This document shows, piece after piece, positions 50,144-60,399 of a stretch of DNA of 64,000 nucleotides. This stretch comes from Thermodesulfobacteriota bacterium (GTDB taxonomy: Bacteria; Desulfobacterota_D; UBA1144; Nemesobacterales; UBA2774): NCBI GenBank assembly GCA_965216785.1, contig OZ244197.1, forward strand, positions 832,001 to 896,000. The letters run 5' to 3'. The notes beneath the pieces were generated by a model, which made no database searches, had not been told where the DNA came from, and saw nothing but the letters and a program-made list of their open reading frames with translations. Position numbers and translations under genes: made by a program. How positions within the stretch are numbered: the stretch's first letter is position 1; each line of letters begins with the position of its first letter.

Positions 50144-52480
50144 TCATGGTTGCATATTGAGCTGTCTTCTTGGTGTAGTTGGTGTATCATAAAAACTTCT
50201 AAGTAGAAGTGGAAGCATTACTAAATCACCAATTAAGATTGCTATAACTGAAAATGTGATTAATAATCCAAAGTAAAACACAGTTTTTATACTAGCAAGA
50301 AGTAGTATTGAAAAGCCTAAAAACAATATTATACTGCTAATTACAATAATTCTGCCTACCTGGTAATTAGCTTTTCTAAGGGCGGTAAATAAGTCCACAC
50401 TACGATTTCGCTCTCTTAGATATCTATTCATATAATGTATAGTATCATCAATAGATATACCGAGTACAATTGCGGCAATAGTAGAAGTAGTCAAATCCAA
50501 ATTGATTTGAGAAAATCCCAAAAACCCAAGAAAAAGTACAATCGGAAATATATTTGGGAGTATGGCAATGAAAGCTAGTTTAAAGCTTCTCAACATGAAC
50601 AGCATAGTGATAAAAATGAAAAAAAATGCTACAAATAGGCTTTTTTTCATTGATCCGAAAGCATAATCCATAACTTTAATAAATAAGGCTGGATAACCTG
50701 GGATGGTTAGATCAGCTATATCTTGGAAGTATTTGGTGCCTAACTCGCTAATATTGTTGAGATTCTTTTCAAGTTGCTTGATACTCATAGTAGATCCAAT
50801 TAACACATTGATCCTTGCTTTAGTAAAATTTTTGTTTATGAAACTACCAGAATCTTCGCTCTCGGTTATAGACTGAGGCAAACTTCTAATAAATGGATCT
50901 GATAAATACGGGTCGTAAAGGGTTTCAAGCAATTCCTTATTGTAAAGTACGTTCGAATATCTTTGTAAAAAGTGAACATAGCTAAATGTGCTTTTTATCT
51001 CTTGCATATCCGTTAATTCTTGTTCAAAATCATGGATGGCTTTGATCAATTTAGGATCTTTCAGGTTTTGGTTCTCTTTAGTTAACACCATGAGGTCTAT
51101 AGGGTAAGCATCGCCACCCCAATTCTCACTTATAAATTTGTGGTCTTTCATGACTTTAGAATCTGCAGAAAAGTAACCCATGGGATTCATATCAATATTG
51201 ATCTGTGTTATTCCATAGGCAGAAATAAACAGTATTAATAATAAAAATGCCCAATAAGCTTTTTGATGTTTAAAAATTTGAGCTAGAAATTGTACTAGGC
51301 TATTTGCTATGTAGGTTTTAGGATTGAACTTTAAGGATGATAGTTTTATAAAGTTCAATAATAATGCACTATATATAAATGCACATATAAGCGCTATTAA
51401 GGTACCAACCGCAGCAAAAACTCCGAATTCCTTTATAACAGATGTCGATGAAGTGAGTAGGGATAAAAATCCTATCATAGTAGTTAGGGTAGTGTACAAA
51501 CAGGGTTTATAGATGTTTATAAGTGCTTGTATAATAGTCTCAGATTTTTTCATTTCTGTTTTTTGATTTTGATACAATAGCTCGAATTCATTGACTATGT
51601 GCAAAACAATAATAAAACCTAAAACGATTATTAATGTAGGAATAATCATAGTAAAAATGTTCAACCTATAACCCAGATATCCATAAATTGAAAGGGTAAT
51701 AATCGTAGAAGTAATCGTTGTTGCAAAAACCAATAATAAATAGAGCACTCTAGGAAAGAACAAAAGAGTAAGCAGGAAGGTCAATAAGTATGTTAAACCT
51801 AAAAATAGAGCAACATCATGTCGTGTTAACTTGTTTAGGTTATATGTCACTATGTCCATACCACCCAAATGAACGTTTTCAGCACCTAAAATATTTATGG
51901 ACACTTGATGAATTTTTTCCACAATATTGTTTCTTTTATCGTCAATGTCCTCTAGTGGATCAAGTTCGATTATTATCATACTAGCCTTACCATCATTATT
52001 GATAAAACGATTTATTAGCAAAGGGGATGATAGAATTGATTTTTTATACTCTGACAATGTTTCTTCTAATATAGGAATGCCATTTTCAAAATAAGAAGTA
52101 AATTCAATCTTGTAAGCACCATCTTCTTTAATTCTCCTTACATCCTTAACATTAGTAATTGACCAAACTTTTTTAATACCTTCAGTGACTTGAAGTTTCT
52201 CAGTTAACGACTTTATTTTATGTAGAGTAGTTGGTTCTATTACTCCAGGACTTTCAACAATTAAAAGAAATATCATCCGGTCGTTACCGAATTCATTTGT
52301 GAATTCGTTGTATAATTTTAGTGATGGGTCATCATCAGCAAACCAAATATTGATTTCACTATTTGGAGATAAAGCATGTTCTAGATACTTTGCACCAAAT
52401 AAAGCTATAACTATTAATATGATTAGAATTACTAACCTAAACTTATAGAAATAGTAAAAGAATCTTTGTACTCTGTGCAT
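50144..52480 (-). CDS. MMPL/RND-family lipid exporter
   Basis: Two repeats of TM + periplasmic domain + 5 TM; LTTMIGFLSL; GISIDDTIH. Confidence 0.85.
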   Translation of the reverse strand: MHRVQRFFYYFYKFRLVILIILIVIALFGAKYLEHALSPNSEINIWFADDDPSLKLYNEFTNEFGNDRMIFLLIVESPGVIEPTTLHKIKSLTEKLQVTEGIKKVWSITNVKDVRRIKEDGAYKIEFTSYFENGIPILEETLSEYKKSILSSPLLINRFINNDGKASMIIIELDPLEDIDDKRNNIVEKIHQVSINILGAENVHLGGMDIVTYNLNKLTRHDVALFLGLTYLLTFLLTLLFFPRVLYLLLVFATTITSTIITLSIYGYLGYRLNIFTMIIPTLIIVLGFIIVLHIVNEFELLYQNQKTEMKKSETIIQALINIYKPCLYTTLTTMIGFLSLLTSSTSVIKEFGVFAAVGTLIALICAFIYSALLLNFIKLSSLKFNPKTYIANSLVQFLAQIFKHQKAYWAFLLLILFISAYGITQINIDMNPMGYFSADSKVMKDHKFISENWGGDAYPIDLMVLTKENQNLKDPKLIKAIHDFEQELTDMQEIKSTFSYVHFLQRYSNVLYNKELLETLYDPYLSDPFIRSLPQSITESEDSGSFINKNFTKARINVLIGSTMSIKQLEKNLNNISELGTKYFQDIADLTIPGYPALFIKVMDYAFGSMKKSLFVAFFFIFITMLFMLRSFKLAFIAILPNIFPIVLFLGFLGFSQINLDLTTSTIAAIVLGISIDDTIHYMNRYLRERNRSVDLFTALRKANYQVGRIIVISSIILFLGFSILLLASIKTVFYFGLLITFSVIAILIGDLVMLPLLLRSFYDTPTTPRRQLNMQP

Positions 52481-52518
52481 CTTTATACTATTCTCTCCCC
52501 ATTAGAACTAGTTCCTGT

Positions 52519-59800: not shown

Positions 59801-60399
59801 ATAGAAAGGTTCGGGGTAAATATCAGATTAGCTCCACCAATTAGTGCAAAATCACACCTTCCTGTGATAATTGCATCTATACCAGCACTTAGAGCAAATA
59901 TTGAAGATGAACATGCTGTGTCTATGGTCATACTGGGGCCATTGAAATCGAAGAAATATGAAATACGGTTAGAAAGCATAGCAAGCGATATACCTGCAGC
60001 CTCATACCCAGTAAGACGATTAGCGTCAGCTACATAGGTACCAGCTGCTTCACTACCCATGCATCCCATAAAAACACCTGTATTTGAGTTTCGTAATTCC
60101 AGAGGGTTATAACCTGCATCTAGAATAGCTTCATAACAAACCTCTAGCATTAAACGAGTCATAGGATCGAGTTTTTCAGCTTGTCTTGCACTTATTTCAA
60201 AAAATTGGGAATCAAAGTAATCAGGGGTTTTTACTTTTCCGAAACGCTTAGGTGTGGAAAATATACCATTTGGCCAGCGTTCTCTCTCAACTGAAGTCAT
60301 ATCCTTAGCATTGATCAGATTTTCCCAAAATTCATCAGGACTATCTGATTCTGGAAGTCGACAAGATATACCGCCGAATACTATATTTTCTTTACTCAT
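53854..60399 (-). CDS. Iterative type I PKS/FAS: KS-AT-DH-pseudoMT-ER-KR-ACP, animal FAS-like, no TE
   Basis: KS DTACSSS/EAHGTGT/NIGH; AT GHSVG/AFHS; DH HRLNGKIVFP; ER IHSGSGGIG; KR TGGLGGFG/NYAFAN; ACP GMDSL. Confidence 0.93.
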   Translation of the reverse strand: MSKENIVFGGISCRLPESDSPDEFWENLINAKDMTSVERERWPNGIFSTPKRFGKVKTPDYFDSQFFEISARQAEKLDPMTRLMLEVCYEAILDAGYNPLELRNSNTGVFMGCMGSEAAGTYVADANRLTGYEAAGISLAMLSNRISYFFDFNGPSMTIDTACSSSIFALSAGIDAIITGRCDFALIGGANLIFTPNLSISMTKFQMLSPEGESKVFDKSADGYVRSDGIVATLITREHLARRNYSRILNCVTNNDGYNREGVTFPNKQAQVSLLRKAYNDIGIDTTKIKYYEAHGTGTPAGDPQEVAAIDEVLGQNRNKKNPLLIGSVKSNIGHTEGAAGLASVLKILLAMYHGEIPPNINFSEPNPEMKGILEGRLKVVLERTPWKGGLVGISSFGFGGANAHLVLEGQAKSHKEIPELTQGYSIAPCSFRTEDGLDTFLEYLENIRCRNDIASFLQPLASTQLNKMNNRAVIYRTENNQCRIIRGKTPLKKPSLCYVFNGIGAQWTGMASDLINVPVFRRSINLCNNALEHTELNLIELLSDCDERAFENTVNTFPCLTAIQIALVDILNLAGLKPDFLIGHSVGEIACAYADGKLTREQAMRVSYWRGRSMLETKVKAGAMAYVGLNLFETEKICPKDVVVACHNGENNVTVSGEKKAISRFVKKLETKNIEAKVIRSTRKAFHSHMVSPAAEKFHSKLGEIIPKPLERSKRWICTSRPEREWHRARYCSANYFKNNLLNPVYFHEGIKYIPNGSIVIEIGAHALFRGILIESLNNITHISFMQRNSNNIVNLFDGLSHCYVSGLDMNYENLVNNKPSFKSLPRIPNLMAWDHHKTWPVPKIAEERVQFTFDIDVKEEEYNFLSDHRLNGKIVFPAVGYLYLTWKAASLNLQVPQETLPVQFEDVKLHRASMIRSDEKFEFNVSYLKESQMFEVKEKDTLLASGKLKIGDDIRWPDTVEQKYRNEYEIILSKDDIYQEFRLRGYDYGPKFQVISESSTNGNWAKVKWDGNWITFLDSMAQTNILLVNNRSTVLPTYYRRVTIDPLKHNYNESFVEIHFDQHLFTKYCSSFVMEGFVGLSLSERIEKPPILASMHFSPYYEKLREGRNIEVYNEIENSYAITQFLHFYRHLKTCDKDIPSHFLRIKDMLRGYDKKIPNKKSLNKYLKHPNSVNLRFIKYLYKKPEKLIRNTEKHIAGFEEYDDLYNRDLADTLFHSDYFIREMLNIVQENLNSQNSIHICEVGPVTGLFSRKVLTNLRSINDRYVITDFDDSYFDRIKNELSNFSMVTDYQIWDFTRTHHEKTYDLVITGQTFNTNSELMQALQNIRKSLKDGGFLLLNIENANLASILCTWGLRKKFWNYWDVDGQDVGLNLSQENWNNLLQDSGFDIVAIKETYKQKMILCRKTYNKKSIHQRLQFNKDDLKTCQDYYNALNDNTNKRLWLMGNSASAPGLTGLVRSLRKEPNGDRVRCLFVDDSNKVSKRQISKVLKHDLATNVFKNGIWGSYQYRELPETDMVETDSAYMQVMTKGDFSSMRWISAPDLCHESDVYDVNYCALNFKDIMLASGKLPAESGGTYHDCPGMEFSGIRNRDGQRVMGIAVKALSTKVILQRKVDRAWKVPESWTLEEAATVPLVYLTVYLGLIIRAGMKQGQKVLIHSGSGGIGIAAINLALSMQCEVFTTVGSEEKRKYIKKKFPQIDDDHIGYSRDTSFEKLVFQQTNGHGVDIVLNSLSGELMLASLRVLAMNGHFVEIGKFDRIQDTPLGMSIFLKDISIHGVDLSSTILHNPDETKRLLQLFDKGIKSGVIKPLDRTIFDYDEVEDAFRYMARAKHIGKVLIRIRDENNRDKIKVLAKPKFSCDSKKIYIITGGLGGFGLELAYWLVLRGAKNLVLTSRRGIKNGYQASKIDKMQNLGANVTISKRNVTNYRSTLHLIKQCEKIAPIGGIFHLAMVMSDALFLNQDKHTFEKVCSVKLNGAENLSKVSSEYCKKLDQFVCFSSIVATEGNEGQTNYAFANAAMDRLCEQRKRNGLPAISIQWGPIGDVGFIQKNAYVNLSNTLLGLQSIHSCIENLDILLSQDETVVTSFTLDLHRHKEFANNSKKTSTDLVNVILHIFGFQNESQVDMDTPLFELGMDSLMTVEILIALEYGFNLKMNMAEIRKSTINQLKQNFSNNTNTT

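Follow-up and report, generated by a model that had tools for sequence, protein, structure and literature searches.

A bacterial synthase related to animal fatty acid synthases, encoded with a sulfotransferase and an RND transporter on a genomic island

The gene cluster and its genomic island

In the window, by which we mean the whole stretch of 64,000 nucleotides analysed from a Thermodesulfobacteriota bacterium, three uninterrupted minus-strand reading frames span 50144..60399, separated from one another by 120 and 38 bases. They encode a synthase of 2181 aa (53854..60399) with the Pfam order KS-AT-DH-pseudoMT-pseudoKR-ER-KR-ACP and without a thioesterase, a sulfotransferase of 404 aa (52519..53733; PF13469, Sulfotransfer_3, E 5e-39) and an RND transporter of 778 aa (50144..52480; Pfam MMPL, E 2e-26). 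A sequence-only reading of this DNA had described co-oriented synthase, sulfotransferase and MMPL genes, and the frames and Pfam matches bear it out. It had not mentioned an animal fatty acid synthase (FAS) lineage, the methyltransferase-like and FAS pseudo-KR domains, a convergent tetR gene, operators or an island, all of which were found here.

The catalytic residues of the synthase are present in KS (C163/H295/H335, with the motif HGTGT), AT (S586/R611/H688, with GHSVG and AFHS), DH (H870/D1020), KR (K1976/Y2015) and ACP (S2139). The NADPH motif is retained in the ER, as is the Lys of GKFD, but Ser takes the place of the 'LLDA' Asp of the animal rows, a residue with a catalytic role in ER. 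The earlier description of the enzyme as fully reducing holds only for its domain content. The methyltransferase-like domain (residues 1244-1339; 56383..56670, minus strand) is predicted to be inactive, because the SAM motif has degenerated to GPVTG and 'LH' has lost its His. The FAS pseudo-KR follows at residues 1434-1513 (55861..56100, minus strand; PF21149, E 5e-18). Compared with its closest ortholog, P0503, the catalytic domains are 79-88% identical and the pseudo-MT 67%. A single-sequence AlphaFold model of the DH-pseudoMT-pseudoKR region reached a mean pLDDT of 32 and was set aside, and a likeness between 'GLFSR' in the query and animal pseudo-MT motifs was dropped as out of register.

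The protein ends about 40 residues past the ACP serine and has no Pfam match to a thioesterase or reductase family, in agreement with the earlier claim that such a release domain is lacking. A search of the genome's ORFs found neither type of thioesterase as a free-standing protein (best E 0.054). The only PPTase match (PF01648) of the whole genome lies at C1:2952166, so that the window indeed has none, as previously noted. The host also carries type II FAS genes.

Convergent with these genes is a TetR-family regulator (TetR_N + TetR_C_33; 49454..50062, plus strand), a second copy of which lies at C1:121685. Upstream of tetR there are three operator-like sequences (49368-49380, 49397-49414 and 49419-49436), and a near-palindromic site at 60480..60497, 81 bases upstream of the synthase start, differs from the tetR promoter site by two mismatches. 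In the whole 3.1-Mb genome, the 18-bp candidate operator with at most two mismatches occurred only before the two tetR copies and before the synthase; specificity is given here as this genome-wide count, any chance figure being biased by a pattern drawn from the sites themselves. A promoter and terminator scan stayed at chance level (42 vs 53 expected and 9 vs 6, respectively). The closest orthologs of the synthase (P0503, 79%) and of the sulfotransferase (P0122, 71%) each come from a JGI contig whose recorded length is 15,877 bases, and their linkage is read solely from that equal figure. The candidate operator common to tetR and the synthase, the short gaps and the matching figures of the two orthologs support the view that synthase, sulfotransferase and transporter form one regulated operon. 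Loss of the thioesterase and presence of the sulfotransferase coincide in the query, and probably in the ortholog as well.

The cluster lies in a genomic island of about 32.2 kb (30780..62953), with a GC content of 37% compared to 46% for the genome. The island separates the 5' half of comM (YifB family; 62954..63667, minus strand; TIGR00368 positions 1-235) from its 3' half (29952..30779, minus strand; positions 238-499). At one end there is a large serine recombinase (30751..32442, minus strand; Resolvase + Recombinase + Zn ribbon) and at the other a replication-associated protein (62117..62830, minus strand; PF23343), while in a congener genome comM is whole. The split target gene, the terminal recombinase and the empty site in the relative identify the island as a serine-recombinase integrative element in comM. 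The synthase gene is bacterial, since it is intronless and stands in this low-GC island. The window also contains dnaA and dnaN.

Relationship of the synthase to animal fatty acid synthases

In a PDB search, the synthase scored 1518 and 1508 bits against human and pig FASN, 1240 and 1195 bits against EcPKS1 and EcPKS2, and 512 and 496 bits against mycocerosic acid synthase (MAS) and LovB. Its best named homologs were mostly animal. Over 1271 aligned columns its identity was 45-48% with animal FAS (19 rows), 32-35% with bacterial PKS (13 rows) and 31-32% with fungal sequences (five rows). In a KS+AT+ER+KR tree (LG+C20), bacterial FAS-like and animal rows formed one branch (SH-aLRT 100, length 1.02), and the animal-side rows formed one branch with the query outside it (SH-aLRT 100). 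The same grouping was obtained from FastTree (79 rows), from LG+G4 (48 rows), from KS alone and from ER+KR alone. The grouping of the query with animal FAS and its separation from the PKSs of bacteria and fungi had a support of 100 for KS, for ER+KR and for the concatenate; all supports are SH-like or SH-aLRT values, not bootstrap. A tree that nests the query among animals, beside Trichoplax, coral, hemichordate and frog, was rejected (AU p 8e-60). The query as sister group of all animals could not be rejected (p 0.137), a placement that we do not claim. Five plasmid-borne sequences served as outgroups.

On these comparisons we assign the synthase to the animal FAS lineage in the broad sense (FAS plus AFPK), and not to animal FASN in the strict sense, judging from its position outside the animal clade and the missing C-terminal thioesterase. 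No sequence sampled in these trees is closer to animal FAS than the bacterial group, which lies outside it; the sampling leaves out mollusc AFPKs, the EcPKS sequences, amoebozoan and dinoflagellate PKSs and non-FAS animal PKSs. Lin et al. 2024 stated that the animal-type FAS enzyme occurs in no other domain of life. The likeness to animal FASN comprises the domain order including pseudo-MT and pseudo-KR, the catalytic residues, the AFHS-type AT, 38-40% full-length identity and the long common branch; the bacterial host, the operon with a sulfotransferase and an RND transporter, and the ER Asp position set the query apart.

The AFPKs of Elysia, EcPKS1 and EcPKS2, share an FAS architecture that ends at the ACP without a thioesterase, according to PMC7280274 and PMC11831141. 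Their ER is dead; that of the query keeps its NADPH motif and Lys, with one Asp position changed. EcPKS1 scored 1941 bits against mussel FAS, 1240 against the query and 1279 against the bacterial P0004; from 1941 compared to 1240 bits, a comparison of scores and not a tree, it appears nearer to animal FAS than to the query. In PMC10764717, molluscs and arthropods are the only groups from which AFPKs are reported. Fungal highly reducing PKSs (HR-PKSs) of the LovB type share the order KS-AT-DH-MT-ER-KR-ACP, and their SAM motif is intact, as in most bacterial relatives of the query, but they are separated by a long branch and have no FAS pseudo-KR among their listed domains.

Relatives of the synthase were found in at least nine GTDB genomes. 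Most stand alone in the chromosome, with neighbours such as EF-P, KdtA, MutS, CcoN and glycolysis genes. None of the 95 fetched loci, bacterial FAS-like loci included, had a sulfotransferase or transporter homolog near the synthase, several of these loci ending close to the gene; the full-length synthases among them carry a thioesterase-like end. The methyltransferase motif was kept in 19 of 23 rows of the relatives set and lost in all 38 animal-side rows. With an intact-looking methyltransferase and a thioesterase-like end in most members, the bacterial enzymes are likely to resemble the ancestor of the animal enzyme. Searches elsewhere added little: 18 pattern matches on viral contigs contained no relative, none of 874 matching plasmid records covered 80% of the query (15 listed ones were about 29-32% identical), and a 50%-cluster search returned mostly multi-module PKSs and gained only P0002. 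A 2224-aa synthase of one relative (G033) proved to be an ordinary PKS adjoining an NRPS.

Direction of transfer

A bacterial sister group with an active-looking methyltransferase would be a missing intermediate between HR-PKS and FAS, whichever the direction of transfer, and it makes the transfer hypothesis testable. It is quite possible, at somewhat less than even odds, that an early animal or other eukaryote passed the gene to bacteria once, before the methyltransferase decayed, and that it then spread between phyla on mobile elements. Eukaryotic descent fits the position of fungal HR-PKSs as the next branch out (support 97 in the concatenated tree), and a single bacterial clade was not rejected (AU p 0.335); the gene is rare and scattered, and here it lies on an island. 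However, divergence on the bacterial side runs deep, its subgroups sharing about 37-48% identity, and P0394, putatively bacterial, falls below both groups in the best concatenated trees. According to PMC10764717, sponges, ctenophores and choanoflagellates yielded no animal FAS, and vertical descent therefore needs several losses.

We raise the opposite direction only tentatively. Animals may have obtained their cytoplasmic FAS from bacteria, as a rare mobile KS-AT-DH-MT-pseudoKR-ER-KR-ACP-TE family, still moving between phyla, that reached the ancestor of placozoans, cnidarians and bilaterians; in that ancestor the methyltransferase would have decayed. If so, the transfer would account for the lack of the enzyme in sponges, ctenophores and choanoflagellates, and what the ancestral enzyme made would be revealed by the bacterial members. 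The enzymes, encoded by intronless bacterial genes and about 40% identical to human FASN, are also convenient models in which to study iterative chain control and the origin of the pseudo-methyltransferase.

Predicted product and competing explanations

Our preferred explanation, which as a whole we put at a probability of about 0.6, is that a bacterial synthase of the animal FAS family, from a group outside animal FAS and regulated with its partners, makes a lipid by the following steps. The host's single Sfp-type PPTase very probably primes the ACP. The AT would, with good probability, load malonyl-CoA and the module would cycle iteratively, giving an unbranched chain with the methyltransferase dead. 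With no thioesterase, it is conceivable that the last rounds skip reduction and that the chain cyclises and leaves as an alkyl 4-hydroxy-2-pyrone, the release described for the thioesterase-less animal enzyme EcPKS2 in PMC11831141. This is an analogy, since the ER of EcPKS2 is dead and that of the query mostly intact-looking. Once released, the product would be sulfated on a hydroxyl by the sulfotransferase; we give even odds to the synthase product being a substrate of this enzyme in the first place. Export is equally balanced: the RND protein, with about 11 hydrophobic segments in a crude scan, may extract the product from the inner membrane.

The pyrone of caprazamycin is made by a type III PKS. 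Its PAPS-dependent sulfation, as a triketide pyrone, by Cpz8 resembles the proposed step in its chemistry, and the sulfated pyrone there serves as a sulfate donor (PMC6731281, PMC4257720). The product would most likely be a sulfated, exported lipid, a sulfated alkylpyrone or similar, and the cluster would point to an undescribed, probably sulfated lipid. APS kinase is present in the host. ATP sulfurylase was not found there with Sat, PUA_2 and CysD as queries, nor Sat in any of 18 genomes of the same family, and the missing enzyme counts against sulfation by the cluster.

Two analogies drawn in the sequence-only reading did not survive. The mycobacterial sulfolipid pathway (Pks2, Stf0, MmpL8) likewise combines a reducing iterative synthase, a sulfotransferase and an RND-type transporter. 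Against the Pks2 model, however, the synthase scored 625 bits where the cut-off is 2400, and MAS was far below FASN in the PDB search. The sulfotransferase matched only PF13469 and PF00685 and no Stf0-type family (PF09037), and among NCBIfam models the transporter matched best the HAE3 RND family (TIGR00921), at 211 bits against a cut-off of 352. No Pap/Chp acyltransferase occurred among the island ORFs scanned, as the reading itself had said of this partner, and membership in the sulfolipid pathway was rejected. In the sponge-symbiont swf cluster, too, a mono-modular synthase lacks a thioesterase and precedes a sulfotransferase function. According to PMC3908369, SwfB is a reductase-sulfotransferase fusion and SwfA is KS-AT-DH-ER-KR-ACP with HATGT; the query has a stand-alone sulfotransferase, HGTGT, a pseudo-MT and an FAS pseudo-KR, and membership in swf was rejected too.

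Less probable than the preferred explanation, and in our view unlikely, is that the synthase is an accessory FAS whose saturated chain is removed by host acyltransferases or hydrolases, while the sulfotransferase and transporter serve another lipid (e.g. a hydroxylated quinone) and share only the regulator. All reductive domains are present, most relatives stand alone, and in one related genus 27 of 36 genomes carry similar sulfotransferases beside SDR genes, without any synthase; in mycobacteria, a pathway with a sulfotransferase leads to sulfated menaquinone (PMC3141025). Against this, the host already has its own type II FAS genes and, among its ORFs, no free-standing thioesterase, and thioesterase loss goes together with the sulfotransferase in the query and probably in its ortholog.

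It is improbable that the sulfotransferase is itself the release device, sulfating a beta-hydroxyacyl-ACP for elimination to an alkene as in curacin and olefin synthases. Its gene stands directly behind the ACP end, the site of a release domain, and this chemistry is described for curacin in PMC3908369, but the curacin-type route needs a thioesterase, the match to the PKS-embedded sulfotransferase P0450 was weak (24%, E 4e-4), and the PDB search gave only 2zq5 and 2z6v as solved relatives. These two structures are presumably Stf1 and Stf9.

Mis-assembly or mis-binning of animal DNA as the source of the synthase gene, a reading to which the mostly animal named homologs and read support from one sample, possibly the genome's own, might point, has a negligible probability and was rejected: the gene has no introns, its GC3 of 0.26 is common to the recombinase and neighbours, the operator-like site is shared with a bacterial tetR, the 79% ortholog is known from another collection, the query stood outside animals in every tree, and 66-kb contigs from four runs of that sample cover the synthase through to comM with no differing letter.

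An animal-type synthase in a bacterial genome

Our principal finding is that the lineage of animal fatty acid synthase (FAS) has a bacterial branch and that it is sited on a mobile island. In the portions of the literature consulted, animal-type FAS is said to occur in no other domain of life (PMC10764717) and the animal families are described as absent from microbes (PMC11831141), and the portions of PMC7280274 and PMC9582728 seen do not mention a bacterial member. Twelve of the 18 supplements of PMC10764717, whose labels may hide bacterial entries, contained no Thiodiazotropha, Gammaproteobacteria or VAW64320. 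No description of an animal-type FAS from bacteria turned up in a literature search that covered few subscription papers.

The three genes lie where the sequence-only reading had placed them, all on the minus strand: the synthase (2181 aa, 60399-53854), a sulfotransferase (404 aa, 53733-52519) and an RND/MMPL transporter (778 aa, 52480-50144), with intergenic gaps of 120 and 38 bases. Pfam assigned KS, AT, DH, methyltransferase-like, FAS_pseudo-KR, ER, KR and ACP domains to the synthase and, as had been read, neither a thioesterase nor a reductase release domain. The second gene matched Sulfotransfer_3 and the third MMPL; the top NCBIfam model for the transporter was HAE3, at a score below the cut-off.

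When the synthase was searched against the PDB, human FASN (1518 bits) and pig FASN (1508) scored highest, followed by the sea-slug enzymes EcPKS1 (1240) and EcPKS2 (1195), and mycocerosic acid synthase (512) and LovB (496) scored far lower than FASN. Among the best 120 of 2570 homologs above threshold, the query took one of the first 11 places and metagenome or MAG proteins (38-79% identity) the other ten; the remainder were mostly named animal FAS (37-41%). Two relatives carry the automatic annotation 'fatty acid synthase'. On inspection of the sequence, the KS, AT, DH, KR and ACP all retain their catalytic residues, and the AT motifs, GHSVG and AFHS, are those of the animal rows. In the ER, the NADPH motif is retained and GKFD still has its Lys, with Ser replacing the Asp of the animal 'LLDA' (Asn in two relatives). 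The SAM motif of the methyltransferase-like domain is degenerate.

The genomic island and its regulator

The synthase gene is bacterial. A single contig of 3.12 Mb, judged 92% complete from markers, holds the window, and dnaA and dnaN lie at a distance of 40 kb. Four runs of one sample, which may be the genome's own, gave 66-kb contigs that span the synthase into comM without a single differing letter; since they are interrupted at the repeated tetR region, no single piece crosses all 20 kb.

The island that carries the three genes, about 32.2 kb, splits comM into a 5' half (62954-63667) and a 3' half (29952-30779). One island end has a large serine recombinase, the opposite one a Rep-family gene. 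In the congener G002, comM is unsplit and its sequence maps onto both host halves. The G+C content of the island is 37% vs 46% for the genome, and the GC3 of the synthase is 0.26 vs 0.48 for dnaA. In two genomes of the same family (G003:C9, G004:C5; L156), comM is apparently interrupted: its open frames there measure 226 and 314 aa vs about 512, which suggests a common integration site. A tyrosine recombinase fragment (PF00589, 38935-39561) within the island suggests nested insertions. The island also contains NHL-repeat genes, tandem paralogs (45278-47070) and two ORFs without a Pfam match (60803-61555 and 39812-40516) that are 75% identical in DNA.

The TetR-family gene (49454..50062, plus strand) is convergent with the transporter gene. 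A search of both strands of the whole genome for the 18-bp site of its promoter, with at most two mismatches, found five places: two before each of two tetR copies, with the fifth 81 bases upstream of the synthase. Allowing three mismatches added a single site, also before the second tetR. That 89% copy lies with its operators in a second low-GC region (G000:C1:108699-122324), beside ORFs that resemble integrases and others paralogous to island genes; this region contains no synthase.

P0503 (2180 aa), the nearest ortholog of the synthase, is 79% identical to the query, and P0122, the nearest ortholog of the sulfotransferase, 71%. Each is recorded on a JGI contig 15,877 bases long, a match in length which suggests that they may be linked. 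At 0 of 95 loci did tblastn match a sulfotransferase or transporter homolog, and this counts against a general operon.

Sulfate supply and a possible product

The three-gene arrangement stands, and the exported sulfated lipid predicted from it is plausible and unproven. The ACP would most likely be primed by the host PPTase; the sole PPTase match in the genome, a 236-aa protein of Sfp size, falls outside the window, in which none had been seen. The synthase module would then add malonyl units iteratively to give an unbranched chain, which may be released as an alkylpyrone, sulfated and exported. We infer this whole route from priming to export. In the parts of the sources consulted, pyrone release by EcPKS2 is linked to its missing thioesterase (PMC11831141) and a triketide pyrone is sulfated in a PAPS-dependent manner (PMC6731281, PMC4257720).

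The only solved relatives of the sulfotransferase found in the PDB were 2zq5 and 2z6v, which we take to be mycobacterial Stf1 and Stf9. Of 100 other genomes of the order, 27, which all belong to a single genus, encode similar sulfotransferases (30-33% identity), and at the four loci examined no synthase was within 1.5 kb. Besides an APS kinase and a CysH-like reductase, the host has two further PF13469 matches; neither Sat nor CysD was found as ATP sulfurylase in its genome. Sat was present in 0 of 18 same-family genomes vs 5 of 12 others. There may be an unrecognised source of APS.

Bacterial relatives and the direction of transfer

The ER profile matched in three of the phylum's 119 other genomes, at 212-221 bits vs 415 for the query. 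The match in G033 is an ordinary PKS, and the other two, outside the trees, show 39-41% identity, the level of ordinary PKSs. In G033, of the same order, locus L011 (G033:C16:175-13836) has a PKS, a condensation-domain protein, an NRPS with thioesterase and a PPTase-like gene.

A scan of 185,579 GTDB genomes with two ER peptide patterns matched 42 stretches; 14 were relatives and nine of these FAS-like, a lower bound, from Ca. Thiodiazotropha (three), other Gammaproteobacteria MAGs (two), Granulosicoccaceae, Rhizobacter, Gemmatimonadales and Acidimicrobiia (one each). Two of the nine end at contig ends and were left out of the trees. Of 324 stretches from metagenomes, 204 proved to be relatives; 80 were kept, and 12 of these were unbroken 2300-2490-aa frames of the FAS-like group. 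Genes neighbouring bacterial relatives include EF-P, KdtA, MutS, CcoN, PrpF and gap-pgk-fba. The homologs P0007, P0008, P0010, P0011, P0013, P0392 and P0394 are presumably bacterial.

A SAM motif of the form GxGTGG, with the His that follows it, is kept in 19 of 23 rows of the relatives set (a few near-duplicates among them), in all five fungal rows and in 0 of 38 animal-side rows. The same 19 rows have a thioesterase-like C-terminal domain, which matches the animal FAS thioesterase weakly (hhalign 69%, E 4e-5). The four other rows are the query, P0007, P0008 and P0002, a truncated sequence whose full-length cluster mate P0503 likewise ends at the ACP. Most bacterial relatives (L012-L020, L026-L045; P0003-P0014, P0390, P0392) are stand-alone genes whose methyltransferase looks intact and whose thioesterase-like end is divergent and hardly detected by Pfam; their predicted products are methyl-branched fatty acids.

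Trees were built from KS, AT, ER and KR (1271 columns), all without mollusc animal FAS-like PKSs: a FastTree of 83 rows less four, of which two were near-duplicates, one was partial and one atypical, and reduced trees of 48 rows (LG+G4) and 33 rows (LG+C20). Eukaryote-like metagenome sequences formed 22 rows; importin-beta is a neighbour at one related locus. Every tree puts the bacterial group on a single branch with animal FAS (support 100) and unites the animal-side rows in a branch that excludes the query (99-100). The concatenated and ER+KR trees have fungal HR-PKSs as the next branch out; the KS-only tree places these among bacterial PKSs. The deepest FAS-like branch is P0394 (2944 aa, on a 30-kb NCBI contig), which has an additional ACP near residues 1154-1210; its thioesterase-like domain is followed by a second acyltransferase domain at the C-terminus.

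Nesting of the query with Trichoplax, coral, hemichordate and frog was rejected (AU p 8e-60). The data are compatible with a single bacterial clade (AU p 0.335) and with the query as sister to animals (AU p 0.137). Taken together, the trees and AU tests indicate that the bacterial group is not a recent escape from any sampled animal, and an old transfer may have run either way. EcPKS1 scored 1941 with mussel FAS vs 1240-1279 with the bacterial proteins, which suggests that it belongs on the animal side. Five intronless FAS-like genes of 2650-3130 aa (L060, L061, L064, L077 and L079), carried by long metagenome contigs of eukaryote-like character, group in a long branch within the animal side of the tree.
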